From Psammoneis japonica (Eukaryota): 64,000 nucleotides of DNA. Below, piece after piece: positions 1 to 42,137 of the stretch. A program made the translations under genes and the position numbers. The number at the start of each line of letters is the position of its first letter. Position 1 is the stretch's first letter. Location: NCBI GenBank assembly GCA_008632985.1, contig QPGO01000019.1, forward strand, positions 186,001-250,000, given 5' to 3'. Below the pieces are notes generated by a model. The model searched no databases. It worked only from the letters and a program-made list of their open reading frames with translations, and was not told where the DNA came from.

Positions 1-2860
1 GCATGCCTGCCAGCACACACCTGAAAAAGGCGTGCAAGTCTCCCAACCCGGCTCTCAATGTCCACCGGCACAATGAACCCGTCGCCACCAACACGGTGCA
101 CTCTGACACACCCGCCATCAACTCCTGCTGCGTCAGTGCACAGCTCTTTGTCAGCACGGAATCTCTTGTCACCGATGTCTGCGGCAGATGACATCCACAA
201 CAGTGCTCAGGTTGAGATCAGCAACAAGGTCCTTGGCATCCTTCGTGCCCTCTTCATCTCTAGTTGGCAAAGCGAGCCTCACCACCAGCACCAGAACTTT
301 GCTGAGCACCGCTGCCAGACTGTGAAAACCATGGCCAACACAATCATGAATCGCTTTGGATCTCCCGCACACACCTGGCTCCTCGCCCTCATGCATGTGT
401 GCTTTGTGCTTGACCACACTGTGTCTGCCAAGCTACACCGGTGTACCCCCACTGAGGTGCTGTCCGGTTCTACCCCTGACATCAGCCCGCTCCTTCGCTT
501 TCAATGGTGGGAACCCATGTGCTGCCACCTGGATGATTCTGACTGGCTGTCAGAATCTCGCAAACTTTGTGGTCACTTCATTGGCATTGCCAAACATGTT
601 GGTCATCAAATGATGTTCAAGATTCTCTCTGACGACACTCAGAAAATCATTTGTTGTTCCAATGTCCGCTCCGCCCATGACCCGTCTACTCTGAACCTCG
701 TCTTGACCCTCCTGAAAAAGGATCTGCTGAACCCATTGTCAAATCCCGACATGAGTCTCCGGATTCAATGGCTTCACCAGATGGGGAGACGATCAGGATG
801 CCCAAAATGCCAGTCTTCAACCCCGAGGATGTCATCGGACGCACCTTCCTCATGAATCCGCAAGAGGACAGACAATGTCACAGAGCCCACATTGTCAAAG
901 CTGTTGAAGACCATGATTGGGAAATTGGAGACAACCCTGAACTAGTCAAGTTCATTTGCTCTGTCAACAATGACAAATGTGAGGAAGTTCTTGCCTGCAA
1001 TGACATCATGCACCACATTGAGCAAGAAGACAAGGATTCTACCCTCTGGAAGTTCCGACTCATTGTCTCTCACGAAGGACCATTGAGACCTCACTGCCCA
1101 TCTTGGAAAGGCTCAAGCTACAACATCATGCTTGAATGGGAGAATGGGGGGATAACATCTGAACCCCTTGCCATCATTGCCAAGGATGATCCCGTCACCT
1201 GTGCCATTTGTGCACCCGAACACGGCTTGCTTGGCAAGACCGAAGGCTGGAAACGTTTCCGGACCATAGCTCGACGCCAGAAGAAGCTGTTCCGCATGGC
1301 CAACCAAGCCAAGCTGTGCTCCTTTCATGCCGCACCACGACACAAGCACAGATTCAAAGTGCCCCGGGACTACAAGCATGCCTTGGCTCTCAATGAACGC
1401 AATGACAACCGCAAGTGGGGAGATGCAACGGACCTCGAGATGACTCAGCTTGATGAATGCGAGGTCTTCCATGACTGTGGACACTGCAAGGACTCCAGTG
1501 CTCCGCCAGGATACAAGAAGATCAAGGTGCACCTCGTCTGTGACGTCAAACACAACAGATGGCACAAAGCACGCCTTGTCGCTGATGGGCACCTCACGGA
1601 CGCACACGTTGACAGTGTCTGCTCTGGGGCAGTGTCCCTCCGTGGCCTGCAAATGACATGTTCTTCCTGGCAGAACTCAATGACCTAGAGACCTGGGCGA
1701 CCGACATTGGGAATGCCCATCTTGAAGCCACCACTGAGGAGAAGCTGTACATTGTGGCAGGCCCGAATTTGGCAAGTTCGAATGACACATCCTTGTCATC
1801 CACAAGGCTTTGTACAGACTCTGCAGCTCCAGCCTCAGGTGGCATGAACGCTTTGCCAATTGCTTGCGCAATGAGGGCTTCTTCCCATGCCGCGCCGAAC
1901 CCGACATCTGGTTGCACAGGAATGGCAATCACTGCAAACACGTGGCAGCATACGTGGACGACCCAGCTTTCGCCATGAAGGACCCACAGGCTTTTGCGGA
2001 CACTCTCATGGAGAAGCACAAGTTCAAGCTCAAAGGCACTGGACCATTGGAGTTCCACCTTGGTTGCAACTTCACCCGTGACCCAGACGGCACCCTGTGT
2101 CTTGCTCCTTTCAAGTGCATTGAGCGCATGGTTGACAACTGTGCACGTCTCTTTGGGGAAAAACCTCGTGCTGATGTGCTCTTGCCTCTTGATGAGGGAG
2201 ACCACCCTGAGCTTGACACCTCCAAACTGCTTGAGCCGGATGGCATCCACCAATTTCAATCCTTGATTGGATCCCTGCAATGGGCTGCATCCCTTGGACA
2301 CATTGACATCACTGCGGCCGTCATGTCCTTGTCTGGCTTCCGTGCAGCCCCTCACCAAGGCCACTTAGACCGTGCCAAGCGTGTCTGCGGATTCCTCTCC
2401 AAGATGCAACATGGTGCCCTCCAAGTGCGCACTGAGGAGCCCGACCATTTGGATCTTCCCAAGCCCGTGTGTGACTGGTCCCAGTCTGTGTGTGGGGAGG
2501 TAGAAGAACTGCTCCCACAAGATGCACCTGAGCCACTTGGCAAGTTCGTCACTGCGACCCATTGCGTTGACGCAAACTTGTTTCATTGCATGCTCACAGG
2601 ACGCTCAGTCACAGGCATCCTGCATTTCCTCAACAAGTTTCCGGTTGATTGGTTCTCCAAGAAACAAGCAACAGTCGAGACTGCCACATGTGGATCTGAG
2701 TTTGTTGCCGCAAGGACCTGCGTTGAGCAGATCATTGATCTGCACATCACTTTACATCACCTTGGCGTCCCCATCCATGAAACCTGTTGCATGTTTGGGG
2801 ACAACAAGTTGGTTGTGGACAGTGCCACCATCCCGCACTCTAAGTTGCACCGCCCTCTCA
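1..2860 (+). mobile_element. Decayed Ty1/copia (diatom CoDi-like) pol: integrase, RT, RNase H; truncated by the window edge
   Basis: Frameshifted ORFs 58-855, 768-1688 and 1810-2913 carry SEPHHQHQNFAE (integrase), EPLAIIAKDDPVTCA..GWKRF, DVKH..HKARLVADGHLT, DIGNAHLEA, YVDD and VDWFSKKQATVETATCGSEF, in copia order IN-RT-RH. Confidence 0.93.
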
Positions 2861-2995
2861 TTCCACCATGCACTGGGGTTGCTCCCAGGTGTGGACCCTC
2901 CTTCGTCCCCTGATGTTTTGGAACTTTGATCCCAAAGCTTCCTGCCAATCTGACTTCAAATCTGTTGCTGTTGACCCCTCAAGCAAACTGGGGAG

Positions 2996-3333
2996 TGACA
3001 GGATTTGAACAAGATTTTAGTTTGTCACACACAATTGTGTGTGCTTTTAGTTCCATGCGCGACGGGCGATGCAGTTTGCTTTCAAGCCACATGGCTCACA
3101 AGAATGACAACAGCAGTGCCAATGTCACGACACCAGTCTTTTGGCTCCTGCAATGGTCTCTGCACAGAGACTCATCTGCTGTTTAGACAGCAGCAAGGGG
3201 TTGTTGTTTTCTTCCACCCAGTCATCTTCATTTCCTGACAACACCGTTGTGGATGGGTTCCAATCCCAGGTGGGACTCCGTGTGACATTGGGCCCGTGGA
3301 ATTCTGCGTGCGAGCTCTGTGTTAAAATCATCA
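2996..3333 (+). repeat. Probable 3' LTR of the decayed copia
   Basis: Purine tract GGGGAG immediately precedes TGACA at 2996; candidate ...ATCATCA end near 3333; partner LTR is outside the window so the end is unverified. Confidence 0.45.
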
Positions 3334-4260
3334 ATCAATTGAAACATGTGTGATTGCCAACAGAAAAAGAGGCAATTTTACGAACGCATCTCCTCCTTCA
3401 CACTTGGAGCACATGAACAACAGTTTGCATGGGTGTGTTCCACAGACATTGAAGAACATGCCCAGCGCATTTTCATTGTCACAAATGTTGAAAATAGAAA
3501 GCCTTTGGCTTCGCAAAATGGGAAGTGTGAAACAATTTCCTAGAATGTCACACGCAGCCATCTGCGTGCGCGACATGCGGCACGATCCAAAAAACCATTG
3601 ATGTCACAGTTCAGTGCTGCGAGGTCCCACCCAGAGCTGGAACACTTCACCCAGGAGTGCTTCTCAACAACAAAATGGGGTCAGAAAGTTTTGCGCCTCA
3701 TTTGCATGTGTCGTTGCATGCTTTCTGAGTGGCAGTCAAGAAAGCAATCATCAGAGAACAAGATGAGTGGTTGCATGCCCTTGGAAACTAAAGAGCGATG
3801 GCACAAACGGAGTCGAAGCACACCCCGTTGTGTGCCGCTGTTTTGCAATCCCATTCTCCCAGCCAGCCAGCGAGCGAGAGTGGAGCACAAAGCACTGAAA
3901 CAAATCAATTTTGAATGCTGCAGTGCCAAGAAATGCATTGCTTTTCTACGCACGTGGCAACAACAGGAATCATTCGGGTCCTGAGAGTCATCACGTAGAA
4001 ATTGTGTGGGAGAGCACCAAAAATAATTATCATCAGTCTGTCCATCCATCCGTATATGAATATTGTCACAAACATCATTCAGCGACGCTCTCTTCATTTT
4101 CGCTTCTTGATTGTTGGCATTTAGGGAAGGAACGAACGAACGGTGGCACATTATTTCATGCAATGCAGTAAAAGCACTCCAGATGTTTCTTTAAATAACT
4201 ATTCTTCACCATGCATGACATTACTTAACAAACTTTCGTCAGCTCAGCGTCTTGATTGTT

Positions 4261-4318
4261 GGCATTAACGGTAAGGTGTCGCAATTGTAGTTGGGCATTA
4301 ACGGTAAGGTGTCGCAAT
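4261..4318. repeat. 25-bp perfect direct repeat, two copies (GGCATTAACGGTAAGGTGTCGCAAT)
   Basis: Copies at 4261-4285 and 4294-4318, about 140 bp upstream of the ATG at 4458. Confidence 0.85.
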
Positions 4319-4457
4319 AAGTATAAGTATTTTTGAAGACTTCGGCGAATTTGTGGGGCTCGGATCATTGTCACTTTTATCATGGAGACGATCTGATTCG
4401 CGATGTGTCTCATAAATCCAATCGAATATTGAGTGACTAGCCTGTTCATTCGCGACG

Positions 4458-7400
4458 ATGTTTGCCAGTAGAGCAGTTCTTCTCCTGCTCGCTGCAGCTT
4501 TTGCTCCGCAGAGGAGCGGCGCTCTAAAGGTACCGACGGATGAATCGAGTGTACTTTGTTTTGGAGTGCTTTGTTCTTGCTTCCTTTTTGATTACTCACC
4601 AGGTTTTTCCCTCTCCGTATAAACTCGTTGTACAAAGGGAATAGAAGACTACTTTCCTCCTCAACAAGAAGAATACCTTCCGCTTGATCCTTATTCCCGA
4701 ATGCTGAATGACATGGGCGAACCCGAATTTGATACTATGCAGCCGTGTTTGGACGCCGCAACTCCCGGAAACCCTTCGTGCACAGCAGGTGATGTTGACA
4801 TTGCACAAGCGACCGTGACTGAAACCACTGGTTGCGTCGATGGCATGGTCACTTTTAACGTGAGCATAATGGTAGCCGTGACTGGAATGGGGGGGGACCG
4901 CCACGACATTGGCATTTTCTTTTCAGAAAATGCCACGATTGGAGACGCTCGAGGCGGAGACTCCTGCACCGTGGTCACGCCTCCATATGGAAATGGTGGA
5001 TTCTTTGATTTGGATATGACCAACGACCAATTTATTGATAACAATATGGTTCCCGGTATTCAAGACGAATGCGGGGACATTGCAGATGGCAACAACATTA
5101 CTTTTTCGGTTGAGCTCACATTTAACTGCACGGACAACACGTTAGATTTGCCGTATTGCGTTTCCTCTTCTACGCCGGGAAACAATAAACTTTGCACGGT
5201 CCCCGTGGAAGGTGAAGTTGGTCTACTCGAGTGTTTTTTTTAATTTGGTTGCTCGGTCCCATGCTTCTCAGTTTCTTACATGTCTGCTTACTTTTTCCGC
5301 TATCTCTATCATCTTTTGTAGCGTACCCAAAGCCAGGCTCCAAGTGTGTGTGCAATGAGACCTTCTCGTTGGACGTTAGTCCAATCACTCCAAGTCCAAC
5401 TCCTGCGCCGACGCCGTCTCCGACTCCCTCTCCTACCCCGAGCCCAACTCCGTCGCCCACACCTGCGCCGACGCCGAGTCCAACTCCAGCACCGACGCCT
5501 TCTCCCACCCCGAGTCCAACACCTGCGCCGACGCCGTCGCCTACTCCAGCGCCAACACCTGCTCCTACCACGAGTCCGACACCTGCGCCGACGCCTTCAC
5601 CTACCCCGGCTCCAACTCCTGCTCCGACACCCAGTCCAACTCCTGCTCCTACCCCGAGTCCAACCCCTGCTCCTACACCAGCGCCAACGCCGTCACCGAC
5701 CCCTGCTCCTACCCCGAGTCCGACGCCGTCCCCTACACCAGCGCCAACGCCGTCTCCGACGCCTGCTCCTACCCCGAGTCCGACGCCGTCCCCTACACCA
5801 GCGCCAACGCCGTCTCCAACCCCTGCTCCTACTCCGAGTCCGACCCCTGCTCCTACACCAGCGCCAACTCCGAGTCCAACCCCTGCTCCTACACCAGCGC
5901 CAACGCCGTCTCCAACTCCTGCTCCTACACCAGCTCCTACCCCGAGTCCGACGCCGTCCCCAACACCAGCGCCAACCCCGTCTCCAACTCCTGCTCCTAC
6001 CCCGAGTCCAACCCCTGCTCCTACACCAGCGCCAACGCCGTCACCGACCCCTGCTCCTACCCGAGTCCGACGCCGTCCCCTACACCAGCGCCAACGCCGT
6101 CTCCAACTCCTGCTCCTACACCAGCGCCAACGCCGTCTCCGACGCCTGCTCCTACCCCGAGTCCGACGCCGTCCCCTACACCAGCGCCAACGCCGTCTCC
6201 AACCCCTGCTCCTACTCCGAGTCCGACCCCTGCTCCTACACCAGCGCCAACTCCGAGTCCAACCCCTGCTCCTACACCAGCGCCAACGCCGTCTCCAACT
6301 CCTGCTCCTACACCAGCTCCAACGCCGTCTCCGACCCCTGCTCCTACCCCGAGTCCGACGCCGTCCCCAACACCAGCGCCAACCCCGTCTCCAACTCCTG
6401 CTCCTACCCCGAGTCCAACCCCTGCTCCTACACCAGCGCCAACGCCGTCACCGACCCCTGCTCCTACCCCGAGTCCGACGCCGTCCCCTACACCAGCGCC
6501 AACGCCGTCTCCAACTCCTGCTCCTACACCAGCGCCAACGCCGTCTCCGACGCCTGCTCCTACCCCGAGTCCGACGCCGTCCCCTACACCAGCGCCAACG
6601 CCGTCTCCAACCCCTGCTCCTACTCCGAGTCCGACCCCGTCTCCAACCCCTGCTCCTACTCCGAGTCCAACCCCTGCTCCTACACCAGCGCCAACGCCGT
6701 CTCCAACTCCTGCTCCTACACCAGCTCCAACGCCGTCTCCGACCCCTGCTCCTACCCCGAGTCCGACGCCGTCCCCAACACCAGCGCCTACCCCGTCTCC
6801 AACTCCTGCTCCTACCCCGAGTCCAACCCCTGCTCCTACACCAGCGCCAACGCCGTCACCGACCCCTGCTCCTACCCCGAGTCCGACGCCGTCCCCTACA
6901 CCAGCGCCAACGCCGTCTCCAACTCCTGCTCCTACACCAGCGCCAACGCCGTCTCCGACGCCTGCTCCTACCCCGAGTCCGACGCCGTCCCCTACACCAG
7001 CGCCAACGCCGTCTCCAACCCCTGCTCCTACTCCGAGTCCGACCCGTCTCCAACCCCTGCTCCTACTCCGAGTCCAACCCCTGCTCCTACACCAGCGCCA
7101 ACGCCGTCTCCAACTCCTGCTCCTACCCCGAGTCCGACGCCGTCCCCTACACCAGCGCCAACGCCGTCACCCACTGTGCGGAAGGGCGCTTGCTGCCCAC
7201 TAGCTGGATCCAATAGGGTTTGCTTCAAGGGAACTGAAGAAGAATGTCTTTCAAATTACGGACTCTGGCAAGGAAACGGCGTAACGTGCGAGGACGCAGA
7301 TTGCCCGACGTCACCTCCTACAACCTCTCCGACAAAGAGCCCTACCATGGCTCCAACTACCCCGGCTCCTACCATGGCTCCCACTACGCCGGCTCCAACC

Positions 7401-8841
7401 AAAGCTCCTACACTGCCCCCAACGAAAGTTGATCAGAGTCCTGGTGCATGCTGCACCTTGCTTGATGGATGCAAGTACCTTTCTCAGGAGACGTGCGCTT
7501 TGGGCGGTGGTACATTCACGAAACCAAACCAAAAGTGTAAGGACACTGAATGCCCCAACAAGGGAGCTTGCTGCTTGGAGGATGGGTGTAAGCGAACCTT
7601 TAAGAAGGAGTGTACCAACCAAGGAGGCAAGTTCCAGGGATTTGGCGTGCAATGTGAACTCGGCTTGTGCCCGACCAAACCACCAACTCCGGCTCCTAGC
7701 ACCGCAGCGCCTACGCAAAAACCCACCATTACTCCTCCTCCGACTGGAGCGTGCTGTGATGTCATGAAGGATGAATGTGAACAAACCGCAGAAGAAGATT
7801 GTGACACGGGCGTATTTTAGGACTTGGAGTCAAGTGCAAGCCGGGCATATGTCCCACAAGGACCTCTCCCGGAGCCTGTTGCCTCAAATCTGGAGAGTGC
7901 CGTTTCTGGTCTCAACAGACGTGCGCTGCCAACGGAAACTTCTTCTTGGGTCCTGGCACTTCCTGTAAGAATGTGGTGTGCCCAGTCAAGAATCCAAGCC
8001 CTACCCTGCTCCTGACAAGAAACCGTTAGGGGCCTGCTGCTTTGACAGTGGACTATGCCGCAACCTCGTTCCTGCCGTGTGCAGGAGGAAGTATGGCAAG
8101 TTCATCGCCATTGGTACCATGTGCAAGGATGACAACACCTGTCCCATTGGTCGCCGCGGCAAGCCTGGTGCATGCTGCTTGGTTGATGTAAGGAAATGCA
8201 AAACTCTCCCTGAGAAGAAGTGCATCAAGAAGGGCGGGCATTTTTCTGGCGAAGGTGTCAAGTGCAGCATGAAATCGTGCCCTGCCGCTCATGGTGCATG
8301 CTGCTTGCCCAATGGGTCGTGTGCCGTGTTGAAGAAGAACACTTGTGTCAGGATGAAGCATGGAAAGTTTGTTGGATTCGGAACTAAGTGCAAGAAGAAT
8401 ACCTGCTCCTCTAAACCGGGAGCTTGTTGCTGGAAGAATGGCAAGTGCATGTTGTTGAAGCAATCCAAGTGCTACAGGCGTGGTGGAAAATTCGTGGGAG
8501 CCGGTGTTAAGTGCCGCAAGAAGACTGCCCCAAGAGTCCTGATTACAGGTAGTCTGTACCCCGATTGAGGGTGTGGAAAAGGTGCGTGCTGCTTGCCCAA
8601 TGGATCGTGTGCCGTGTTGAAGAAGAATGCTTGTGTCAATAAGAGCAATGGAAAGTTTGTCGGATTCGACACCAAGTGCAAGAAGAAGACATGCTCCTCT
8701 ACACCCGGTGCCTGTTGCTGGAAGAACGGCAAATGCATGGTGTTGGAACAGACCAAGTGCTGCAGGCGCGGAGGAAAATTCGTGGGAACCGGTGTCAAGT
8801 GCCGCAAGAAGACCTGCCCCAAAATCCCTGATTACAAGTAG
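4458..8841 (+). CDS. Large secreted protein: signal peptide, acidic Cys-containing domain, long Pro/Thr mucin-like stalk, multiple GACC cysteine repeats, Lys-rich C-terminus
   Basis: [22 protein letters not shown] leader; GT-AG introns at about 4530-4602 and 5212-5321 (the second joins in frame to AYPKPGSKC); (TPSP/TPAP)n; repeated GACC-x-C...GGxFxGxGxxC units; several single-base frameshifts in homopolymers; frame just after intron 1 unresolved. Confidence 0.8.
5387..7175 (+). repeat. Coding 12-bp-unit tandem repeat (TPSP/TPAP) with higher-order duplications
   Basis: Recurrent blocks such as ccagcgccaacgccgtctccaactcctgctcctacc; frame slips near 6061 and 7043 each lack one C in a C-run. Confidence 0.95.
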
Positions 8842-9599
8842 TTCACTCCCCCATTAACGGTGTGAAGACCATGGATAAAATACCAAGTTGAGGGGTGTGG
8901 AGGACTTGGAGAATTGCCATGTTGATGTTTTCGACATTGCAAAATAAATGTTAATGTCTATCACATTCGTGTTGCAATTATTGGAAGTGGATGCAGTGTC
9001 ATGCACTTGCAGCACCAACAACAATTGACATTAGCAAGTTGCTAAACTTCCACCAAAAAGTGGAAACACATGCAGATAAACGCAAAAATTAATTATCATT
9101 TTCATCACAACACCTCCACACCACTCTCTGCCTCTTTGGTGTCATTTCTCATAAACCAAGCAACGCCCAGAGACGTCCAGGGGCGTTTTAGAATCGCACT
9201 CACATGCTCTGTTGATCCACATTGCGAAATGCTGACACTGGCATGTGTCAAGAACAAGAAATGGCGAAAATTGACTCTCACACATCGGCTGTTGTTGCCT
9301 CCTGAAGTCCATGACAATTGTTTGTTTGTGACAAACACCTCTTCACCCCAAAATTGCCCATCAACTTACAATTGCCTTTTGTGTCTCAAATGATGCCATG
9401 TGATTGGCATTGTTGAAAACAATGGGCTGCAAACAATGTTGAGGAACCCACCGAGTGCACATTTTGTTGCGGAAGAGCAACTGGCACGGACCATTGCTTG
9501 GAGAAATCAGCAATCCATTGCTGTGAAGGTTGACCCAATGGTGCAGCATTGCAATGAACATGGTTTTTAACAGGCCATCATCTTGTTTGTTCAGATTGG

Positions 9600-10560
9600 A
9601 TTGGGTCCAAATGCCATCCAAGTTGGAGCTGGCAAATGAAGTGCTCCAACCTGCGCAAGCAAGCGGGTGAGCTGCATCTTCCTCGGGACACTGAAAGTCC
9701 TTCAAAGTGTCAAAGACACTTTGATCATTGTCTTCTGCATGGAGAGACTCTGGCTGAAACTGGCAATTGGATGACAAGATCTTGCATTGGATGCAAGCAA
9801 TGCATGTGGACGATGTGGCACACCAAAGTTTTAAAGAATGTTGTGGATGAGGAACCTGGGCTGCATTTGGGTGAACTGGTGCTAAAAATAAATGACATCA
9901 CTGGCAAAAAGTGGAGTTCAAGTCAGACATGGAAGAAACTCAAAAAAGATGCAGGGCACTCACTCAAAGTCATGACAGACAAGGCCATCAAAATGGACAA
10001 GGAACAAAGGGCCTGTTGTCTCAATGCTTTGCAAGCTGCGGCTCTTCAACCCAAGATGTCAGTTCACTCATGTAAATGAGTGTCTCACAAAGACTGAAGT
10101 GAAGCAAGACAGCAGCATTGGTTTTCAAAAAGGGGCAAAATTCCTGTTTGGTTGCGTCCCACATGATGGACAAATGTGCTTGGCATTCGTTGCTTGCTGC
10201 TTGTGACATCAATGGTCGTGCAAAGGAAGCATGCAATGTTGTTCAGCATGGCAACTCAAGAGATGAAGAGAGGGGTCCAATTGTTGGAGCTGTTGATCAG
10301 GGCATTGTAAATTGTGGGTGAAAGAGAAGCTTCTTCTGTGCCTTGGTGACTGAAGTTTGGGAGAACCAAGGTCCATTGTGGTGCTGGACAATGTGTCAGT
10401 GCACCATTCGGGCTGCATTGTCAATGTGATTGAAGCCATGGGGGCTGCAATCATTCATTCTGCTCCATGTTTCCTTGATCTAAATCTGATTGAAATGACA
10501 TTTTTGGTTTCCACAAGGTGCACTTGAAGCATCATGGGAGTGCCAGGTGGTGCAAGCATT
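9600..10560 (+). mobile_element. Decayed Tc1/IS630-family (DDE_3) transposase
   Basis: 10363-10497 translates EPRSIVVLDNVSVHH...IIHSAPCFLDLNLIEM (family pattern VxDNAxxH...YxxPYSPDLNPIE); upstream HTH-like HLGELVLKINDITGKKWSSSQTWKKL; in-frame stops. Confidence 0.8.
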
Positions 10561-12922
10561 GTCTCAATGCTCTTGACAGCATCACCCCTGCAATGGCTTG
10601 TTCATGATGCAAACATCAACAGACTTAGTTTTCTTGCCTCCTTGCTTGTGTGGCAGAGCATTTCCTGTGCTTTTAATGTGCTTCTCTTCAACTCTGTTGT
10701 CTTGTGCCAGCCTCTGTTTGGCAGCAAGAATGACTTTGATTTGTTGCCAATGTGGCCACCCTCTCAACAATTGTGTGTCAATCTTGCAGGGCCATGGATC
10801 AAATTGCAAGCTTCAAAGAACATCTTTTGACAAATGATGCAGTGTTCACACATTGATGCAGACTTGGGTCATCTTTGTCATCAGCAAAATTGCACTCGGG
10901 TTCTGTGCACTCATTCAGATTGTTCCCATGCTCTTGCTCAAAAGCCAGACATGGTGGGATGTCACAGCTCATCTCGTGAACCTTTGGGGTGTGCTCCTTT
11001 GTCTCATCACTGTGCAGGAGAACTGCGGGGCCAAGCATGTCAACACTGAGTTTGGTGTCACAATCCTGCATGGCCCACTTGGTCTTTGTTGGCTGTGATT
11101 GTGGTTGTTGTTGGCAGCACCACCATGTCCTCTGCTTCTCAAAATCCTCTTCTCCTTCTTTTTCTTGTGCAGATGACAACAGCAAGAATGTGTTGGTTGA
11201 CCCCAGAGCTGTTGTGGTTCAATTCTTGGCAAGCAACGTGGTTGAGTGCATTGTGGAAGACTGCGTCATTGCTCAAAGCCTGCAGCTTGATTTGCTTGTC
11301 TGCCAAAGGAACAGTCTTGAGCTCATTCAGTGCAAATTCTTCAGAATGTGAACAGATGGCAACTCCTGAACTCTCTGACCACCTCTCAAATTTCAAGCTT
11401 CTTTCCTTGTTGTGTCCTGTGCTTTGTCAAAAACCTCTGCTCAATGTCTTGGAAATTGGAGCTGCAATGGAGCTCATTGTGTGCATCATTGTCCAAGAAG
11501 AAGTCATTGTTGAATTTCTTGGCCTTCCTTTTTCCAATGGTGGCAGAAAGTTGGAGGACTGCAGGAATGTTTGTGCCCATCAAAACTTTCCTCTTTGCTT
11601 TTATTGTCATTGTTTTTGACAACCCCTTCAGACTTGACCACTGCAGAAATGGCATCAAACAACAATGTGCAGCAGATGTGACATGTCTTGCACTTTGCAC
11701 TTGTTGCTCAAACAGACCTGTTGCAGCTGTTGCACTCAAAAGGGTTTTTCTGTCTGATGCATCATGCAAAGTCAATGTGCGAGGTGGCCAAACTGTGATT
11801 CTGCTGTGGGAGCATCCAGTTCCCAATGTGTTCCAATCAAAATTGGGCACCACATTGTGTGATCCAGGCAGAGCCACACCTCCCATTGATCATGATTGCC
11901 AGATGACCAGAGGTGCACAAATTGTCTGTTGTTGCCAAATGCGTGATGCGCTGGTGACAAAACAACAAGGTGGGCCATGGGCACAGACCTTCTGCCCAAG
12001 ACCTGTCATGATCATGTGCTGCATCTGAGAGAATTTCTGTGGAGCAAAATTGCAATTTTTGCAATTCACCACCATGCACAAATGCACTCGGCACAACACC
12101 CTTGGCATCTGCATTCCAGCATGCCCAACAACTTCACCACTTGCATCAACACAATGCAGTCTGCACCACATGCCAAGGTCAAAGATTCTGGCATGTGGCC
12201 AGTGCCAACACAATTGGAGCAATTGCAAACAATTTTGCAAAGAGATTGCTCAGTGCTGCATTGCTGCCAATGTTGCACATCCATTGTTGGGTTGTTGCCA
12301 AGTTCAAGAAGGAAACACCACTGTTGCATTGAGAGCATCATTTGTTTGGTTGCCAGGACAAGGATTCAAGGGAAAAGGTGAAATGGTTGTTGCAAGAAAC
12401 CATTTTTGCCTGAAGTTGATGGAGAGGAATGGAGTCCAGAACTCCACGCATCTTGCTGTGGAAGATGGAGTGCATGTTGAGTTGGATCCCTTGCCTGGCG
12501 TCAGAGGGAACATTTTGCCAACTGAACACTCCCATGGACTTGGGTGCCACTTGCAGTGTGGGTGTTGTGCATGAGTCTGAGCATTGGTGCAAACAACAGA
12601 AACTGTGGTGCATTGCCCTCATGACAGCCCATCAGCTTCAACTGCAACAGGTCCATTGATGATTCCTGTGGCAACAGCACAAGAAACAGACAACAAAGTC
12701 CATGAGAGAGCATGTCTTTGACATTTGGCTGTGCAAGCCACAAAGTGCAAAATGCTCACAACATGTGAGCTCACAAGGCACACACTCACAAGCTGTGCAC
12801 GCAAAATTCTGCTTCACCCAAACAGCAGCTGAAATGAAACCCATTGCAACTGGCAAATGTTCCCTGTGGCAACGGCACAACAAACAGATCACAGAATTGG
12901 TGGGAGCTTTTCTTGGATGCAG

Positions 12923-13147
12923 CATGCCACCCCGCAAAAGAACTCCGGAAAACCAAATTTACACAGAAGCAGCACCAGGGCCCCTGCAGAATTGCCAAAA
13001 AAGTCCGGAATGTCCAGAAACTGTGTAGAATCCAGTGTAGAATCAGCACCAGGGTTGTCAAACAATGTTGTTTGGTGTTTCCACTGGGGATCTGGTGCCT
13101 CTTCTACGTAAATTTGTCACTCCGGAGTTCTTTTGCGGGGTGGCATG
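12923..13147. mobile_element. MITE-like element with about 70-bp imperfect terminal inverted repeats
   Basis: CATGCCACCCCGCAAAAGAACTCCGGA at 12923 is the exact reverse complement of the right end at 13147; similarity continues inward. Confidence 0.8.
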
Positions 13148-14029
13148 TTGACATCTGGGTCATGAACAACACAAAGCACAAAAATGAGTTCACAAGAGGC
13201 ACAAGCAGCCACCATTTTGCTTCACCCAAAACACATGCAACCAAACAAACTTGGCTTTGAACAACTCACAAACATGTTCTGTGGCACCAACGGCACAAGA
13301 AACAGACAGTGGAGTCCATGAGAAAATTTCTTGGACATTCAGCAGTCCAAGTCATAAACTGCAAAGCAGAAGAAGCATCCTCACAAATCATGCTCACCAT
13401 TTTACTTTGCCAAACAACAGATGCCACCACACCAATTTGGGTTCAACTCACAGCAATGGCGCTGCCAGACACCTTTGACATGCTGTCACTTGTGACATGC
13501 TTCATGCCAGGAACGCACAATCACCAATGAAAATTCACAATGAGAGAAGCCAATGACAAAATGCCTGATGGCAAACATGAAAAAAAAAAAGAGGGTGCAA
13601 GTCTAAATTGCACATTTGCTCCACAACCTGCCTTGGTGCTGCTGAACTTTGCTCACCATCATAAATTGAGCAGATGTCACAGATTGCATGAAAAGCATCA
13701 AGTTGAGGCATCACTGCTCTGCTTTTGAGGTGCATCTTCCTGAAGTGCTGTTGATGCACCATGCTGTTGTGCAACATTTTGGTGACAATCAAAGCATTTT
13801 TTGCCCAGAAAAAATCTCTCACGTGCAGCACATTGTGACAGGCAGAAGTGCCAGCATGATCCTGACAGAATGCCAATGGCATGAGCAACATGCCAAAGAG
13901 CTCCCTGCAAACTGGTGACAGTGGACAACACATGTGCCAGCAAGAAACAAGTGAGAGAAAATCTCACAAATGGTCTGACCATCATCCATGCACAGTCTGC
14001 CCCACATGCCTCTGCAGGGTGGGTTGACA

Positions 14030-16190
14030 CCCTCCCCTGTGATCTGACATGTCCAGGAAAAGATGACGCAGATCACCAAACAAGAAAAAAGGGAGGACAA
14101 ACAGTCAACCAAAGGGGCACAAAAAACAGACCAGATGACTCCAGGGAGGCAGGATTCAAACAACATGAAACAATGAGGGCAACTCTGCAGATGCCAGCAA
14201 CAACAAATCAGTGAAAGAAATGTCCCATCATCTCATGGGCATGGCGGGCATGGAGTGTTGAGCCAGGAGCCTTGGTGAGGTCATCACTCAGGCTGACATT
14301 GCCAGTGACACAATGTCATGTGACAACATGCCTTGCATCATCCTTCCAGTCCTAAAAAGCACACCACTGGATGCCAATGTGGCAGGAGCACTTGGTCAGA
14401 ATTTGATTGATGATGATCTTGATGGCTGCAGTTTGTTGTCAATGAACAACAGGGTCATCTTGATGAAACTGAGCTCTCAAAGAACCAAGTGAAGATGCAA
14501 AACAAGCTTGGTGGCAGTGCCAGCAGCACAGAACTCTGCTTCTGTCAAGCTGGTGTGGTGATCACTGTCTCTGTCTTGCATCAACATGCTGTGGTGGCGC
14601 CAGCCAAGACACACACATGGCCAGCAGTTGAGTGATGGTTGTGAAGGTCATCACCACAAGCCGTGTCCAAAAAAGCAAGCAGCTGAGACAGGGAGTCCAG
14701 GGTCAGGAAAGGAAGCAAGGAGTCATCAGAGACAAGTCACTCATGTGAGTGCGGTGGCAAACAAGTGTCCTTGGATGGCTTGCAACAGCTGATGTCCCAG
14801 TTCTCTGTGCATCGGAGGCACTTGGCAACGCCTTTCAATGCCGTGCAACAGATGGGAGCTGGGTGCAACATGAACTTGGAGAGTGCAGTGATGGCAGAGT
14901 CAATCTTGAGACAACAAATCATGCAAGCATGTGACAACTCACAAAGAAGAGTGCAATGCCCAAAACCCTGTGCTTTCCTGCCAATTCATGATGCTTGGGT
15001 GTGCATTTCACAGGACCCCCTGTGCCAGAGCACAATTGAGAAGTCAAGTCAACAGGAACAGGAGCAGCCATGAAATCAGAGTTGACCTCATCTGCAGCAG
15101 GTTGCAGCCAACCATGCAAACAGAGGACCCAGTCAATGCATCCATGGCAGGCAAACAAGACAGAATCATCACATTGATGGATGTGTCCACGCCATTGAAT
15201 TCTGTGCAGAGACCCCAACACTTGAAGTCAGTCTTGGGTTTCCTGCCAGTCCAAGCCACCTTTTCAGCAGCTTCAACAGAGACAACTCCCTTTGTCTTGG
15301 GAGCCTTGGGCTTGTGGACTTTGGTCTTTGGCATCACTGCCCCACTGCCATTGCAGCCATGGCTTGAAGAGAGCAACGTTCGTCGGCCATTGTTGTGCCA
15401 TCTCCTGCAATGGACTCATCATCTGAGTTGTCCTCAGCATCCAGGTGGGGCCCTGAAGCTGGAATGGACTTGTCATCTGAATCATGGGGGTCCTGAGGGG
15501 GTGGATTGTCCTCTGGCGGAGGTTGATCCTTGGGAGGCTGGTCCACGAAGATCTCGGGGCAGTCAGCCATGTCCGACAGCACGCTTGAAGATGTTGAGTT
15601 GGGCCAATCATTTGGGACATTCTCAATCAAAGGACACAAGCTCAGAGAACTCTCTTGGGCCTCAGGTGGGCCATGGGGTGGAGCAGGGCCTGAGATGGTG
15701 CACATGCAAAATCAACAACACACCTTCTGGTGGAGCCAGCTGTTCGGCTGACAGAGTCAGGCACACCAGTGCTTGACATCAAAAGCACGGAGCATGGCTG
15801 GAGGGCAGCAATGACAGCATCAGATCCATGGATGGTTGCACTGGTCTGGGTGTCCCCATGCGGAAGCACAGAATGTGTTAATTTGCCCCAGTTGGGCGAG
15901 CCGACCAGCCGAAGCGCTTGCACGTGCCCATGGAGCTCCTGCCGAGTGCGCCTCTTCCCACAATGCACTGACTGGATGTGGAATCCAGACCAATGCCTCA
16001 GGCAGAGTGCAAGTGGAGAGCAACTGCCAACTGGCAATGACCAGCACTCAGTCAGAAGTCTTTCACCAAACCATGAGCCACCTGGACTGAATCTGCTGAG
16101 TGTGCCAAATGGGAGAGGTTCATCGGTGCACTTGCACCAGAGACCAGTGCAAGTTTCAGGGTTAACCACTTTCACAACAATCATCCTAGT
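14030..16190 (-). mobile_element. Heavily mutated, internally deleted Ty1/copia element
   Basis: Minus strand: IDSAITALSKF..HPAPICCTALKGVAKCLR (RT end), SLTEAEFCAA..KLVLHL (RNase H), SDDLTKA..LHARHA..MMGH (pol end); purine tract AGGGGAGGG at 14038-14030 followed by TG; acidic Pro-rich gag-like remnant at about 15330-16180. Confidence 0.8.
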
Positions 16191-16430
16191 GCTGCTGAAC
16201 CAATCTATGGTTAGTCCAGTGTCTGTGCATCACCTATGATCCTCGAAGCAAGCGGTTTGAGAATCGAGACGCGTGGCGCGAAAATAATTTCAATCATAAT
16301 TCCGACCGACAGAAGTACAGACACAATAGAGAATTCGGGTCGGTGGACAGACGACCCACGACTCCTCGCACGCACGCACGCACGCACAGCATCGTCGCCA
16401 AAAAAACAGCTCCAAGAAGCGCACCACACA

Positions 16431-17564
16431 ATGATGACGACCCGCTGCCGATACACATCAAACGCCATGACAATGACAAGACCAGTTTTCCTTTCAGTGG
16501 CTCCAGTTGCTCTAGTTGCTTATTGTGTGCTTGTTAGCCTGTCGGATCCGAGGAGCAAATTACAACACCATGAGCTGGTGCAGAAAAAGATCGCACCTTT
16601 TTCGCAACACAATAATGAAACCACGTCATTAATCCAAAACGATCTCAGCGCAGAATGTACCTCACAATCCTCAAAAAAGGAGAAATCACTCAGTAATATA
16701 CAGATGCTATCTCTATCAAGAGATAAATTCATGCTGTTGCACATTGGAAAAGCCGGAGGCGGTACATTTCGAGACCGAACAACTCGTGCATGGCGGATCA
16801 AACCCAGAGAATGTCATCCGACTCCTTGTACCAAGCGCTTGGTGTCCGATACGGCTGCATTATTTGTCATTACAATTCGAGATCCGATCGATCGCTTTGT
16901 TTCGGCCTTTTATTGGCGAGACCTTGTCCTCTGCAATCCACACGGCGATGATCGCGAACCGGGTTATCCAGGAGGCGGTCCCTACACGCATTGTCAGAAT
17001 CATTCTCGTGTGCGTGCGGAGCAGGAAATTATTTTTGACAAGTACGAGCGAAATGCAAACCTCTTGGCAGAAGCCCTTTGCGATGATTCTACTGCGGCGG
17101 ACGCCAGGATGGATTTGAAACAAATTGTACACGCTCGATTTTCCATAGAGGATTGGTTGGGAATCGACTGGTGGAAAACAGCAGCACCGTCCATTATGCC
17201 AGTTGTGCTGGAGGAGAATTTTGACTATTATGCTCAAATTGATGATGCGGTTCGTTGGATCCATAATCATACAAGATTCTTCAATGCGTCTGACTTTGCT
17301 TCGCGACAAGCCAATGTTGTTCAAATGGATTGCAAGCAGAAGAGGAACAATGCCCCTCGCACGTCCCCGTCGAGACTTCATTCTTCCGTTACAACCGACA
17401 AGTATCATGCTCCTCTATCACCCATGGGTAAAAGGTGTCTTGCACAGTACTACCGTGCAGATTATGAGATTTTGCAAGACTTAAAGGAACTAGCTTGCAA
17501 GACTGACGTTTGTCGATTGGCAATCCAATCCATCCTTACGCGTCGAGCCTCCTTGTTGGCGTGA
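16431..17564 (+). CDS. Membrane-anchored sulfotransferase-family protein
   Basis: N-terminal TM segment; 5'-PSB-like LHIGKAGGGT and 3'-PB-like IRDPIDRFVSAFYW; C-terminal YYRADY; intact ORF. Confidence 0.8.
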   Translation: MMTTRCRYTSNAMTMTRPVFLSVAPVALVAYCVLVSLSDPRSKLQHHELVQKKIAPFSQHNNETTSLIQNDLSAECTSQSSKKEKSLSNIQMLSLSRDKFMLLHIGKAGGGTFRDRTTRAWRIKPRECHPTPCTKRLVSDTAALFVITIRDPIDRFVSAFYWRDLVLCNPHGDDREPGYPGGGPYTHCQNHSRVRAEQEIIFDKYERNANLLAEALCDDSTAADARMDLKQIVHARFSIEDWLGIDWWKTAAPSIMPVVLEENFDYYAQIDDAVRWIHNHTRFFNASDFASRQANVVQMDCKQKRNNAPRTSPSRLHSSVTTDKYHAPLSPMGKRCLAQYYRADYEILQDLKELACKTDVCRLAIQSILTRRASLLA

Positions 17565-18199
17565 TGATGGAAGAAGCTCATGTGCTGTATTTCTTTGCAT
17601 TTGCTTAGGATGGCCAATGTTAGAAGAGCATTTTTTGTGAACCTGACTGGATGGCTCTTACCAATGCAAGGATGGTATTCTTGGTGACTGCCATCATGGC
17701 CTGACACTAGCTTTCTCTCCAGAGTAGAAGTCACACCATCTCTCTAGCAGCGCGGCAATCCGACAGAAGGGTTCGATTTGCAAGAAACTTCTTCTCTATT
17801 TTAGAAAAAAGCAGAAATACGGAAAATAGTCAACGCAGGTGCAACACATGTCAATTCTTTTTCTGAGCACATCATTTAGAACGACTGCGAGCCCGCAAAG
17901 AGCTCCATGACTATCCCAGCTGCCATGCGGTAGTTAGAGCCAGCTTGGGTGGCACCTCATGCAATGTAGGTACAACAGAAGATCTTTAAAATGAAACATT
18001 CTCATCACGCGTGTGCTGGTTAGGCTCTCACGTCCCAATTTCTCTTTGATGATGATTGAAACGTTTGCGGTCTTTTCGAAATTTTCCTACGGTGATCTTT
18101 CCACTCTCCCATCTTGAATCCTCATGCACAGCTGCTCTTGGCATCCATGTTACAAAGTTGACATCTCTTTCATCTTACTTTGGCACAGTTGTTCATGGA

Positions 18200-19570
18200 T
18201 CTTATGGGCACTTGCGCATTCCTTTGAATTTGGGTGGAGCTCATTTTTGTTGAAGCAAAGAGTGACAAATGCCCAGAGTGATGCCGGCACAGATGACCCC
18301 AGCATGTGCACAGTTTTGCACCGACAGCCCGTGGACTTTCATGCCAACGCCACTCAAAAAATTCAAAAAGAAAGACTGTGAGCACAAAACCATGCAAGAT
18401 GTGGTGGTGACCAAATGATTGTGCCCTGCTGCAAATGGACCCCCATCAGTCCATTGGCTTGATTCCTTTGCATTCTCAAGGACTCAAGATCAACATGTGT
18501 TCATTGGACACCCCAGGGAAGAAAGAATGGCCAGTTTTGTGTGTTCTGGCAAAATCCAACCTGCAGATCCACTCATTTGCCCTGAGCCTGGTGAAAGGTG
18601 ACAATCAAGTTGCAAAGGAGGCAATGAGAGAGAAGTTTCAAAACAGCCACAATGTTTGACATCATGTGCATCCCCACAGTTTGAACAGTGCATTTTTGGG
18701 TGGAGCACCAGCTGACAAGCTTGCAATTTTGTTTTGAATCAAAAAATCAAACACAAAAACACAAGAACAAAGGGTGTGTCAGCCAATGGATTGGATCAGC
18801 TGCAACATGTTTTTGTTGGAATTTTCTTGAGCAAGAACTTTGCAAAACAGCTGCTGGTCACCTGTCGCACATCACAACCTTGACAGGTGCTTTCAGTGTT
18901 CTGCATTTTGACTTGAAGGAGTTCTTTTTGGTTGTGGCAGCAGTGCCAGCACAGCAGCAACAGCAGAGTGGACAAGAGTTGGTGGCGCATTGATGGAGAG
19001 CACAAGACAACTTCTTGTTGGTGAGACATGTGCTGTTGTTCCATGTGAGCAAGAAAAAAAGTGTTGTTGGCTTCTGCTTGACCCAGCTGCAGGAGTGCTG
19101 CTCTCCAAAACTTGCAGCATGGCACAAAAAGAGCAGTGGCTGGCAGCCACCTTGATTTTGTTGTTGTTGTTTTGTTGCACGGGAGATTTGCTGCTGCACA
19201 CAAGAAGTGGTGGATTTTTTGCAGGCAAACCATTGCTTCTTGCTGCTGGGCTGTTGCAGCACCCGCAACATTGTTGCTTTTTTCTTGGGGACATCAAGCT
19301 CCACACTCTTGGTGTGTGTGTGCTGACAACAGAGGCCGGTGATTGTCTTGTTTGGAGAAAGTGCGGGTGCGCTGGCTTGTCGTCTTTGGAGAGAAAGTGC
19401 GCGCGCCAACACGCCGCGCCACACTTTGCTCCTGTTGCAGCAGAGCACTTGTCGTCCAGCTTGTTGAACACAACAAGAAGAACAGACTGCTCTGCAACAT
19501 CAATGTGTCCACATGGCTGCAATTGTTGTTGTTGAAGCAGTGCTGAGAGCGCAACAGTCATCATGGTTGC
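18200..19570. other. TpA-depleted domain, unidentified decayed repeat
   Basis: Essentially no TA; TA-rich sequence resumes abruptly near 19580. Confidence 0.85.
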
Positions 19571-19918
19571 GTCTCTGTTTTTAGTTGAGAATGTTTTCTC
19601 GGAATGTTGAGGAATTTGGAATTCCAAAGAAGAATTCGTAGGTAAAGATATGCTCAGGTAGAATTCTACATACACATATGCAGTTTATAGAAATGGAGAA
19701 GCGAATAAAAAGATATGAATACCGCGCCAAATTGTGGTTGCGTAGAAAATATACGGTGTGCTACGACAGAAGTTGCCTGCGGCAGATGCACCGCGCATGC
19801 ACGACGGCACTCTCGAACTCCAGCACCGGCAACAACAACAACCCACAACAGCGTCCCTGTTGCAACAACAACAAAACAGCGTCTATTACATTACAACAAC
19901 AACCACAACACTACAACC

Positions 19919-26936: not shown

Positions 26937-28100
26937 GTGAGTGTTTGCGAAAAGCCAACCTACGGCACCCGCCCGCCCAGAAGCAAGGATTTACATCCTT
27001 TGCCCCAGAGGAACATCATCATCATCCTGCCTACCGCATCCATCATCGAAACATATTTGGCCTCTTTCTGCTTTGCCTTGGGCACGACTCTTACATCCGA
27101 GGAGATCAAAACAGCGACAGGGACGATGCAGTCATCGTTGTTGATCTTCTCCATGGAAGGATCACAAGCATCAGTCAAGTCATCTTTGGAAGACCTTGAC
27201 GTTTCACGTGTCAACTCAATGGCTGTGAAGAACGCAAAACGTGAATCATTTCGCTGCAGTGGGAATCCGCTGCTCACCAAAAGTGACACACAACAAGTGG
27301 GAAAATCGAATGATCAGGTGGCACGCGAGCTGCACTCCATTGGAGATGAAGCGCAGATCGCATTCTTGGAAACCCCAATGTGGTGGATTGTCGTGCAAAA
27401 GAAAGTGTTGAATCAGCAGCACTTTTTAAGTTTTCGAAATGTTTGTGATGAGTCGATGGGAAGCAGGAAGCAGGGGCGCTGGCAGGCGCATGGCGGAGAA
27501 GTGCTTCGAGTTGTGACAACCGTGCAGGAATTGAAAATTAGACCAAAAGCGTTCCTTCGTCCAAGGACACAAGGAAGTTGCTGGCAATGACGAATCTCTT
27601 TCGAGTGGAGAGCATGTGTGCCCATGCAAAGGCTTGAAGTGCATTGTTTCCTGACCGGGAATGCTCTGCTCATGCCACTGGTGACAGCCGGTCAGGTTTC
27701 TTGGACCACTGCATGCAACATGGGTTTGACGCGTGCTCGCCTCCCACCATGAAAAGTTGCGGCGTTCTGTGCAGTGCATGGCAACACTTGGCTGCTTCCC
27801 ATAAAAGTGGCGCCAAGTGCTCAGAACATGCGTTGTCAATGCAGGACCAACGATTGAACACAAGAATGAATGAGTCAACTGCAGTTCGCGGGGCCTGCTT
27901 TTTGTTCTTCCTTGGACGCAGCCATTGCATCTGATCTGAATTCTCTTTTTTAAGGCCACGAACAGGGCATGCGAACCTGGGACACAGAAAGCAACTGCGA
28001 GCATTTCATGAAATTGGATGATGTTTCTGCACCAGGAGACGAGATGGGCCTTCACATGAAGTGCTGTGAACGGGAAGATGTCAGCAGATTCACTTGTGAT
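26937..28100 (+). pseudogene. Degenerate coding-like sequence, product unknown
   Basis: 217-aa ORF with protein-like N-terminal part, followed by broken frames as TA content collapses after about 27150. Confidence 0.3.
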
Positions 28101-28324
28101 TCTGGGTTGGTGTCTCGTGTCGTTCAATGGGTGTCACAGTCCAAGGACTGAGGACTGCTCGTTAGGATGACCTCGCACCAGAGCGCACAGCACTCTTTAA
28201 TTTCACCTGGTGTCCTCATTGCCTGCTGGCAAAGGAGGCTCAAGACAAGAACTCACGGCCGCACACGAACACTGCGTTACTTTGAATGAAACAAAGGTTG
28301 GGAATTTAGGCTGTTCCGAATCTT

Positions 28325-29450: not shown

Positions 29451-29743
29451 GCTGATTTCTTGTTGCATGATGCAGATGGGAAAGCTTGTTTGCAACCTGC
29501 TCCAGAAAGAGTGGGATGTGTGGGGTGGTTTGAACGGGTGAGTCGAAAGCGGCGAGGGGCATGGCTGGCACGATGGGAAAGATTCATCTTGAGATCGCAC
29601 AACAATGGCCACGGTGCGGGTGAGAAAAAGTGAGGTGGTGAGTCATGCACAAAGGTTTTGCGGTGCCAGCAATGGCTGTCCTGGAATGCCAATTTTAGCA
29701 GCCTTAGACAAATCAACATGTTTGTCCGTTGCGAGCATTGGCG

Positions 29744-30061
29744 CTACGAATTGCTGAACAATTGCGCGATTCACGTGCCCGAAGGTCGAATGTCGTTGCC
29801 CGAAGCAACATTTTCCCTTCGCGCAGATGTCCATTCCACATGGCACATGGCATTGAAAATCTCATTGTAGTCGCATGAGTTGTCTAGGGAATTTCATCAA
29901 ATGACCTCGTGGCACTGTGCTGCGTGATCTACACAAATCGGACATTCTCGAATGCTGGTGCATTTTCTGCGGTTTCTGCGTGCGCGAAGCTCGAATTTCG
30001 TGCCCGAAGCAACAATCATCGTTCGGGCACGTGAATTGCGCAATTGTTCAGCAATTCGCAG
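29744..30061. mobile_element. MITE-like element with 40-bp terminal inverted repeats
   Basis: 29744-29783 matches the reverse complement of 30022-30061 at 38/40; internal repeats of GCCCGAAGCAACA. Confidence 0.8.
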
Positions 30062-36261: not shown

Positions 36262-36280
36262 CGCTTCCTCTGCGCAATCT
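36262..36280 (+). other. Putative non-canonical primer-binding site
   Basis: CGCTTCCTCTGCGC directly after the LTR; reverse complement GCGCAGAGGAAGCG resembles the eukaryotic tRNAi-Met D-arm; no TGG. Confidence 0.6.
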
Positions 36281-36335
36281 ACAAGTTAAGTCAATCGATC
36301 TTAAGCTCTCGATTCTACTTTACTTTGCTGTTACT

Positions 36336-42094: not shown

Positions 42095-42137
42095 GACGTT
42101 TTCGAGTCATCATTCCACCCGACATTGTTGAAGGGAG

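Follow-up and report, generated by a model that had tools for sequence, protein, structure and literature searches.

The left end of a 64,000-nt (64-kb) stretch of contig QPGO01000019.1 (positions 186,001 to 250,000, forward strand, of the Psammoneis japonica assembly GCA_008632985.1), hereafter the window, holds a decayed copy of a Ty1/copia retrotransposon that was probably rewritten by hypermutation of TpA to TpG or CpA together with CpG decay, both acting in situ, at the DNA level and within repeats. Comparison with relatives shows that transitions have removed four fifths of the TA dinucleotides in the copy and about half of the CG. A preliminary description of the sequence had noticed Tyr-to-Cys/His and Arg-to-Cys/His replacements in the conserved motifs of this copy and had attributed them to transitions at TA and CpG.

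The copy occupies 1–2939 on the forward strand and represents the 3' 55% of a Ty1/copia polyprotein, presumably running from integrase through reverse transcriptase (RT) to RNase H. In tblastn, the region 3–2939 is collinear with residues 819–1849 of P0001, an intact relative of 1859 amino acids (aa), in six pieces: 3–185 (frame 3), 193–699 (frame 1), 681–1655 (frame 3), 1658–1762 (frame 2), 1765–2853 (frame 1), and 2865–2939 (frame 3). Because the match is spread over several frames, with at least five frame changes, and is interrupted by an in-frame TGA at 1783, the copy is regarded as a pseudogene cut off by the left edge of the window. The open reading frame (ORF) 1786–2913 matches the Pfam domain RVT_2 (PF07727; E 7.1e-08, 32.8 bits against a cut-off of 31.6). 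The domain spans 1798–2133 on the forward strand and corresponds to the C-terminal half of the reverse transcriptase, including the YVDD motif, in which the TA noted in the preliminary description is indeed kept (TAC at 1951). A total of 1396 proteins are related to this ORF at E<=1e-3, with identities of 59–69% among the long intact ones, and many of them are intact polyproteins of ~1850–1950 aa encoded on metagenome contigs of ~7 kb. RVT_2 and the long polyproteins among the relatives, and presumably the placement of integrase before RT and RNase H, are like those of the Ty1/copia (Pseudoviridae-like) elements, of which copia-like long terminal repeat (LTR) retrotransposons have been described in diatoms; compared with Ty1/copia elements in general, the window copy is edge-cut, frameshifted, non-functional and of a divergent lineage. 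The lineage is considered divergent because Pfam recognizes RVT_2 alone even in the intact P0001 (residues 1338–1554, 104 bits). Pfam names no integrase in the remnant or in P0001, with which the remnant is collinear; the order of integrase upstream of RT is recognized in a single element of the window, its second, intact copia. No second copy of the decayed element was found in the window by blastn or tblastx.

Protein alignment revealed a strongly skewed spectrum of changes. Five reading-frame pieces of the copy were aligned with 68 intact relatives longer than 1800 aa, and columns with at least 80% agreement were used. The window copy is changed in 98 of the 501 conserved columns, and only five of 29 conserved Tyr are kept, all as TAC, while the others became Cys (14), His (7), Phe (2), or Trp (1). 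Tyr is changed far more often (24/29) than all other residues together (74/472; odds ratio 26, Fisher p 4e-14), contrary to the possibility raised in the preliminary description that Tyr codons change no faster than others. Among 36 conserved Arg, 20 are kept (17 CGN and three AGR) and 16 are changed, to His (8), Cys (3), Gln (2), Trp, Lys, and Leu (one each), and 14 of the 16 are products of CpG transitions. For residues other than Tyr and Arg, 0–28% of the columns are changed, residue by residue. The protein shows Tyr>Cys/His and Arg>His/Cys/Gln/Trp because Tyr is always encoded by TAY and most of the Arg codons here are CGN. The same contexts recur at other residues. First-position G>A changes (Asp>Asn, Glu>Lys, Gly>Arg/Ser, and Val>Met/Ile) are preceded by C in 18 of 19 cases, and six of the seven A:T>G:C changes outside Tyr lie within TpA, namely Asn>Asp, Lys>Glu, and Thr>Ala after T, two GTA>GCA, and one CTA>CCA. 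Tyr and Arg of the catalytic core that are invariant in the family are among the residues replaced.

Seven of the eight motif changes listed in the preliminary description stand against the 68 intact relatives: Y>H at 1718 in DIGNAHLEA; Y>C at 1620 and V>A (GCA) at 1629 in DSVCSGAV; Y>C at 1209 in TCAICA, at 2563 in HCVDANL, and at 2689 in ETATCGSEF; R>H at 2743 and 2755 and Y>H at 2758 in LHITLHHLG; and G>R at 1816, R>C at 1822, and G>S at 1831 in YRLCSSS. The eighth, CDVKH, is ambiguous because that column is Phe in 48 and Tyr in 20 of the 68 relatives. Where the copy is changed, the intact relatives have Tyr or Arg rather than Cys or His, and the protein consensus polarises the change as TA loss, as had been proposed.

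The substitutions were further resolved at the DNA level against 80 metagenome relatives. The codons of 77 of them were threaded on the protein alignment, three with a longest ORF below 350 aa being dropped; per-base rates were taken over 863 sites conserved in at least 80% of the 77, and dinucleotide fates over sites where at least 70% of the relatives share the dinucleotide. A>G is found at 15 of 27 A after T and at four of 217 other A (Fisher p 1.7e-13), and T>C at 10 of 33 T before A and at three of 184 other T (p 3.7e-7). For CpG, G>A is found at 23 of 62 G after C and at one of 187 other G (p 6.8e-15), and C>T at four of 15 C before G and at four of 138 other C (p 3.4e-3). Bases in TA and CG therefore change at 9- to 69-fold the rate of the same bases in other contexts, and CpG-context transitions affect 27 of 77 sites. 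The fates of whole dinucleotides, for which distant rather than same-genome relatives served as the reference, gave the products foreseen in the preliminary description. Only five of 25 ancestral TA sites are kept, 12 having become TG, six CA, and two TT, and six of 11 ancestral CG sites are kept, the others being CA (3), TG (1), and AG (1). All 27 ancestral CA and all 18 ancestral TT sites are unchanged, and 24 of 26 TG are kept, the other two being CG. Survival is 5/29 for the TA of Tyr codons and 17/~33 for the CGN of Arg codons, and TA loss is therefore estimated to run ~2.7 times faster per site than CG loss. Both strands are affected, since sense TA gives both TG (A>G) and CA (T>C, which is A>G on the other strand), and the order of TG and CA outcomes along the element does not depart from chance (13 runs observed and 13.0 expected for 25 polarised events).

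The depletion of TA is peculiar to the window copy among the relatives compared. The region 58–2860 has observed/expected ratios of 0.13 for TA, 0.52 for CG, 1.48 for CA, and 1.81 for TG, and exactly 20 TA sites survive there, in line with the approximately 20 given in the preliminary description. The TA ratio of the copy (0.12) lies below that of every one of the 80 metagenome relatives (0.33–1.07, median 0.67), none of which falls below 0.3. TA and CG are uncorrelated across the 80 (rho 0.09), and 10 relatives have CG ratios below 0.4 (0.10–0.35) with TA ratios of 0.43–0.72. CpG decay is therefore common in other hosts of the lineage and TA loss is special to this genome, and since the 10 CG-poor relatives have normal TA, CpG decay does not bring TA loss along. 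These 10 relatives (L002, L011, L018, L021, L022, L025, L062, L065, L067, and L070), some of which have long open frames (L011, 1947 aa), appear to live in CpG-methylating hosts without the TA process.

The signature extends well beyond the copia copy. Mapping of observed/expected dinucleotides in 500-nt bins (128 bins across the window) revealed a bimodal window, in which ~28–29 of 64 kb (~45%) have TA at 0.03–0.13 and the remainder at 0.55–0.76. The depleted blocks have CG at 0.18–0.52 and CA/TG at 1.5–1.9, and CG in normal blocks is 0.83–1.11. TA and CG ratios are correlated over the 128 bins (r=0.81), and each is correlated at about -0.9 with CA/TG. No block combines low CG with normal TA, and some combine very low TA with moderate CG loss. 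In addition to 1–4000, which holds the decayed copia, depleted blocks are located at 9001–16500 (the largest; TA 0.08, CG 0.22, CA 1.81, TG 1.89), 18001–19500 (TA 0.05, CG 0.32), 27001–34500 (TA 0.08, with milder CG loss to 0.51), 42501–44500 (TA 0.05, CG 0.18), 52501–54000 (TA 0.03, CG 0.20), 57001–59500 (TA 0.11, CG 0.34), and 62501–64000 (TA 0.11, CG 0.21), the last running off the window. The copia copy had been described as only part-way through the process, and it is indeed surpassed by other blocks that go down to TA 0.03–0.08. Within 1–4000, TG reaches 1.76 and CA 1.52, and the other depleted blocks lean either way; this mild strand asymmetry may hint at an effect of the direction of transcription or replication.

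The first block ends abruptly, TA rising from ~1 to ~5 per 100 nt between 3996 and 4024, and its end coincides with that of a highly repeated sequence. Contigs of three public runs from one sample were placed on window 1–20000, and the summed contig depth is 4,600–92,500 over 1–4002 and ~35–500 elsewhere in this region. The depth reaches 26,000–92,000 over 2940–4000 and then drops to ~320 in 4003–4669. The drop in depth and the TA edge together indicate that the copia, with its 3' non-coding part, belongs to a highly repeated family and that the mutated block ends where the repeat ends. The non-coding part, 2940–4000 on the forward strand, is depleted like the coding part (10 TA in ~1060 nt) and has the highest repeat depth of the stretch compared, as expected of an LTR; by its position and depth it is probably the 3' LTR of the decayed copia. 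Run X1 derives from one sample, possibly the very one that was assembled; of its 4998 contigs placed on 1–20000, 904 are at least 99% alike, 1320 are 95–99%, and 2774 are 90–95% alike. In the 40 differences examined out of 243, CA or TG of this copy corresponds to CG, and sometimes to TA, in other copies, and the reverse also occurs, which fits copy-by-copy erosion as far as can be read from contigs. Among the 13 window-contig differences listed for single-copy depleted blocks, a small number, two are TA/TG and four are CG/TG or CG/CA.

An internal control is provided by a young, intact copia of another family at 35915–42437 on the forward strand, with ORFs at 36222–37832 and 37836–42128 (537 and 1431 aa) carrying the Pfam domains RVT_2, gag_pre-integrs, SH3_retrovirus, and Pol_BBD. 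Its LTRs (35915–36214 and 42138–42437, 300 nt each) are 100% identical, and its composition is normal (TA 0.71, CG 0.92). The depleted block 42501–44500 adjoins its 3' LTR and begins right beside it, at ~42500. Identical LTRs with normal composition indicate that a very recent insertion is unmarked.

The loss of TA also depends on the flanking bases. Comparing low with normal blocks, the ratio is 0.03 for RTAY (0.011 for ATAT) and 0.39 for YTAR (0.51 for TTAA), and it is 0.06 for TAT, 0.08 for TAC, 0.16 for TAG, and 0.27 for TAA. Among the products, NTGY is gained about twice as much as NTGR. Taken strand by strand, these ratios are read as a preference for 5'-TAY, which is the Tyr codon. The depleted blocks remain open in all six frames because TAA and TAG are removed and the only stop that arises is TGA, through CpG decay: 58–2860 contains 139 TGA, 16 TAG, and four TAA on both strands together, and 45 ORFs of at least 50 aa are found in 1–3200. 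Likewise, 10001–16000 contains 312 TGA, 16 TAA, and seven TAG on both strands, with long ORFs in all six frames.

These observations are probably explained by erosion of a non-functional member of a highly repeated Ty1/copia family, in which two context-specific transition processes, both restricted to the repeat, acted on the chromosomal DNA after insertion. The faster process would convert TpA to TpG or CpA, being A-to-G on either strand and preferring 5'-TAY, and the slower one would be ordinary decay of CpG to TpG or CpA, as in cytosine-methylated silenced repeats. The C>T and G>A changes are concentrated at CpG, as would be expected of decay driven by 5-methylcytosine. Many independent events on chromosomal DNA, rather than editing of RNA or single-stranded cDNA, would be involved, and they may serve as a host defence against silenced or foreign DNA, by analogy with the process seen live in Bigelowiella natans. 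As for the agent, an enzyme that deaminates the adenine of TpA in DNA, drawn to its targets by the same state of the chromatin that leads to CpG methylation, is favoured tentatively, at slightly less than even confidence.

The main alternative for the agent, rather unlikely in our estimate, is a symmetric, maintained base modification of TpA (modified thymine or N6-methyladenine) that mispairs or is misrepaired as 5-methylcytosine is at CpG. TA and CG are both self-complementary and are lost in the same blocks (r=0.81), the most affected four-base class, RTAY, is palindromic, and both strands are affected with randomly interleaved outcomes, as for maintenance-type marks; such a modification would explain the joint loss of two palindromic dinucleotides more naturally. 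However, a deaminase that prefers 5'-TAY strand by strand predicts the same ranking of RTAY over mixed over YTAR contexts, and we know of no TpA-specific DNA modification system in diatoms. The bursts reported for B. natans, in only 11 of 15 lines, also suit a switched enzyme better than a constitutive mark.

Editing before integration, by an ADAR-like A-to-I activity on RNA or a deaminase on cDNA and fixed by retrotransposition, is very improbable and largely refuted already, even though the target is a retrotransposon and the sense strand shows a slight excess of A>G (15/27 against 10/33 for T>C). Sense T>C is frequent (10/33 against 3/184 elsewhere), and the outcomes interleave at random (13 runs against 13.0 expected), unlike those of one-strand editing. 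Random interleaving, the unedited state of the freshly inserted copia, and depleted blocks without copia similarity argue against RNA or cDNA editing and for a process on chromosomal DNA, and run X1 contigs of other copies differ at CpG-derived and some TA-derived sites. ADARs prefer G on the 3' side, the opposite of the weaker depletion of TAG than of TAY found here. In favour of such editing, the 5'-T preference is like that of ADARs, a resemblance pointed out in the discussion of the B. natans preprint (10.64898/2026.01.13.699255). It is still less probable that the pattern is an artefact of modified bases at TA and CG in repeats being miscalled in a long-read assembly, even if it is motif-specific and block-wise. 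Systematic miscalls at methylated motifs do occur in nanopore assemblies. The TA-poor blocks are nevertheless reproduced by run X1 contigs, whose sample may be the source of the assembly: a contig of 1902 nt shows no difference to the window over 17847–19748, none is found over 14235–14893 (659 nt), and eight are found over 2777 nt of TA-poor sequence, with a word depth of ~35–75 on these pieces. The element also has frameshifts and a stop, and genuine TpA hypermutation has been measured in another alga. Since TA is mildly low everywhere (0.55–0.76 in normal blocks, median 0.67 in relatives), it could be suspected that the element family or its host avoids TA, whether as UpA or through codon usage, with no hypermutation; this explanation, to which almost no probability is given, is refuted by the polarised substitutions. 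Selection on codons is implausible in a pseudogene, Tyr and Arg of the catalytic core are replaced, none of the 80 relatives has TA below 0.3, the intact copia of the window has TA at 0.71, and the non-coding DNA of the repeat is equally depleted. Biased gene conversion was rejected, as it is not specific for TpA and cannot remove CpG.

Several points weigh against hypermutation at TpA with CpG decay as set out above. The evidence for this genome is a comparison of sequences. The reference for polarisation consists of relatives 54–69% identical to the copy, not of copies in the same genome. The excess of sense A>G (15/27) over T>C (10/33) is mild (p 0.067) and would be unexpected of a purely symmetric process. 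The TAY preference is drawn from survivors and products in whole blocks rather than from sites polarised against relatives, and the copia alone, with 19 fully polarised TA sites, offers too few to test context. The other depleted blocks are only assumed to consist of repeats or foreign DNA. Because the hypermutable regions of B. natans gained almost no G:C>A:T, CpG loss is probably a separate process on the same targets. Finally, the placement of the host among diatoms rests on one gene, from which it is probably a diatom.

In ascomycetes, repeat-induced point mutation (RIP) turns CpA/TpG into TpA in duplicated DNA and creates stop codons. RIP is the closest well-known analogue in logic, as dinucleotide-specific transitions riddle the DNA of repeats, stop at the repeat edge, and leave a diagnostic skew in both, but it is opposite in direction, since TpA becomes CpA/TpG here, CA is kept at 27 of 27 sites and TA at five of 25, and TAA and TAG are removed. 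Decay of CpG through 5-methylcytosine leaves the same G>A after C and C>T before G and explains only the CG half of the pattern. In animals, ADAR and APOBEC3 likewise defend the host by deamination and leave, in copies of retroelements, transitions that depend on the neighbouring base, but their substrates are RNA or single-stranded cDNA and their changes are clustered and coordinated by strand, unlike the two affected strands, random interleaving, and clean young insertion described here.

The nearest precedent is found in B. natans. According to the preprint, integrated giant-virus and virophage regions received 231 of the 302 single-nucleotide mutations of 15 mutation-accumulation lines; all but one of the 231 were A:T>G:C, and all of those lay at TpA, at ~6e-7 per site per generation (10.64898/2026.01.13.699255). 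The hypermutable regions showed 210 of 211 changes as A:T>G:C, the 95 Mb contained only 124 clusters of windows poor in TpA and rich in CpA+TpG, and TpA-poor coding sequences were enriched in reverse-transcriptase and DDE domains; an ADAT2-like DNA adenine deaminase was proposed as the agent (Mettrop et al., 10.64898/2026.01.13.699255). The two cases share A:T>G:C at TpA giving TpG or CpA by strand, confinement to blocks, and TpA loss with CpA+TpG gain. They differ in that B. natans is a chlorarachniophyte whose live targets are giant-virus and virophage inserts, with almost no G:C>A:T in the hypermutated regions, whereas an LTR retrotransposon is affected here, along with ~45% of 64 kb, and CpG transitions are abundant (27/77). 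CpG, flanking context, and copia are not mentioned in the main-text parts examined (10.64898/2026.01.13.699255). In full-text searches outside subscription journals, this preprint was the only report of TpA hypermutation found, and none concerned diatoms; an apparent match for TpA in PMC4504042 is 'Tpase-like' and unrelated. TpA hypermutation is thus already known, and the window is a new, much heavier instance in another major lineage and another class of target; relative to the main-text parts of the preprint, the co-depletion of CpG in the same blocks and the TAY/RTAY preference are new.

Judging by its genes, the host of the window is unlikely to be B. natans. B. natans has a GC content of 45%, a mean exon of 159 bp, and 7.8 introns per gene according to Table 1 of PMC12730881, whereas the window has uninterrupted host ORFs of 1–2.6 kb (UCH, LRR/MORN, GT92-like, and Deg-like protease). 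The four best named eukaryotic matches of the Deg-like protease ORF are all diatoms (Pseudo-nitzschia 69%, Amphora 63%, Ditylum 57%, and Fistulifera 52%), and in the phylogenetic tree the window protein lies inside the fully supported clade that holds these four, apart from red algae and cyanobacteria. The GT92-like ORF has 16 protein matches, and an Atlas search with the UCH ORF gave no taxonomic indication. A 15-nt dinoflagellate spliced-leader motif was matched at 28731–28745 with one mismatch and dismissed as chance, as 31 of 100 shuffles also match (<=2 mismatches) and the upstream sequence fits poorly.

Little can be assigned within the remaining depleted blocks. They show no similarity to one another nor, outside 1–4000, to copia proteins, and Pfam searches of 102 window ORFs and, at E<=0.05, of 150 depleted-block ORFs gave nothing credible in them besides a sub-threshold DUF3431. 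The block 9001–16500 has neither a Pfam match nor copia similarity, and its 288-aa ORF at 14910–15773 has no match among 1.84 billion representative proteins. The ORF at 52883–53653, with an Atlas recognition of 829, gave no lead to its identity. The DUF3431-like ORF (28328–29026, reverse strand; E 2.1e-05, 24.8 bits against a cut-off of 25) lies inside 27001–34500 and represents either a piece of a host gene on which the process has acted or the cargo of a mobile element. A tandem duplication of ~284 nt (8293–8575 and 8581–8864, 84% identical) lies in a block of intermediate TA depletion. Between the first two depleted blocks, 5322–7817 is a GC-rich (~62%) open frame of 832 aa, rich in Pro, Thr, Ser, and Ala repeats and without a Pfam match, which includes a tandem array at 5395–7168 of ~29 copies of a 60-nt unit, also with periods of 36 and 96; the repeat protein may be of a secreted or cell-wall type.

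The process would have reshaped nearly half of the 64-kb stretch, and its signature, TA below ~0.15 together with CA/TG above 1.6, marks dead elements that escape similarity searches. As few TAA and TAG are left, long spurious ORFs arise in all frames and may be mis-annotated as orphan genes and pollute gene sets, and insertions could be dated by how much TA they have lost relative to CG. If the host is a diatom, TpA hypermutation is not confined to one chlorarachniophyte and reaches a second, distant, and ecologically dominant algal lineage, which would make an old or repeatedly evolved eukaryotic defence plausible; the process could then be tested experimentally in diatoms that can be transformed, and comparatively between species that show the signature and species that lack it. 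A broader proposal is put forward only speculatively, as one that may well prove wrong: diatoms, and perhaps the wider stramenopile-alveolate-rhizarian group, could possess a RIP-like defence of opposite chemistry that rewrites A in 5'-TAY on either strand of silenced repeats, along with CpG methylation. In that case the palindromic targets TA and RTAY, the joint loss of CpG, and the random interleaving of strands would suggest a maintained TpA modification or a chromatin-guided DNA adenine deaminase, undescribed in any eukaryote, and, if true, its agent would be a natural A-to-G editor of DNA with TAY specificity.

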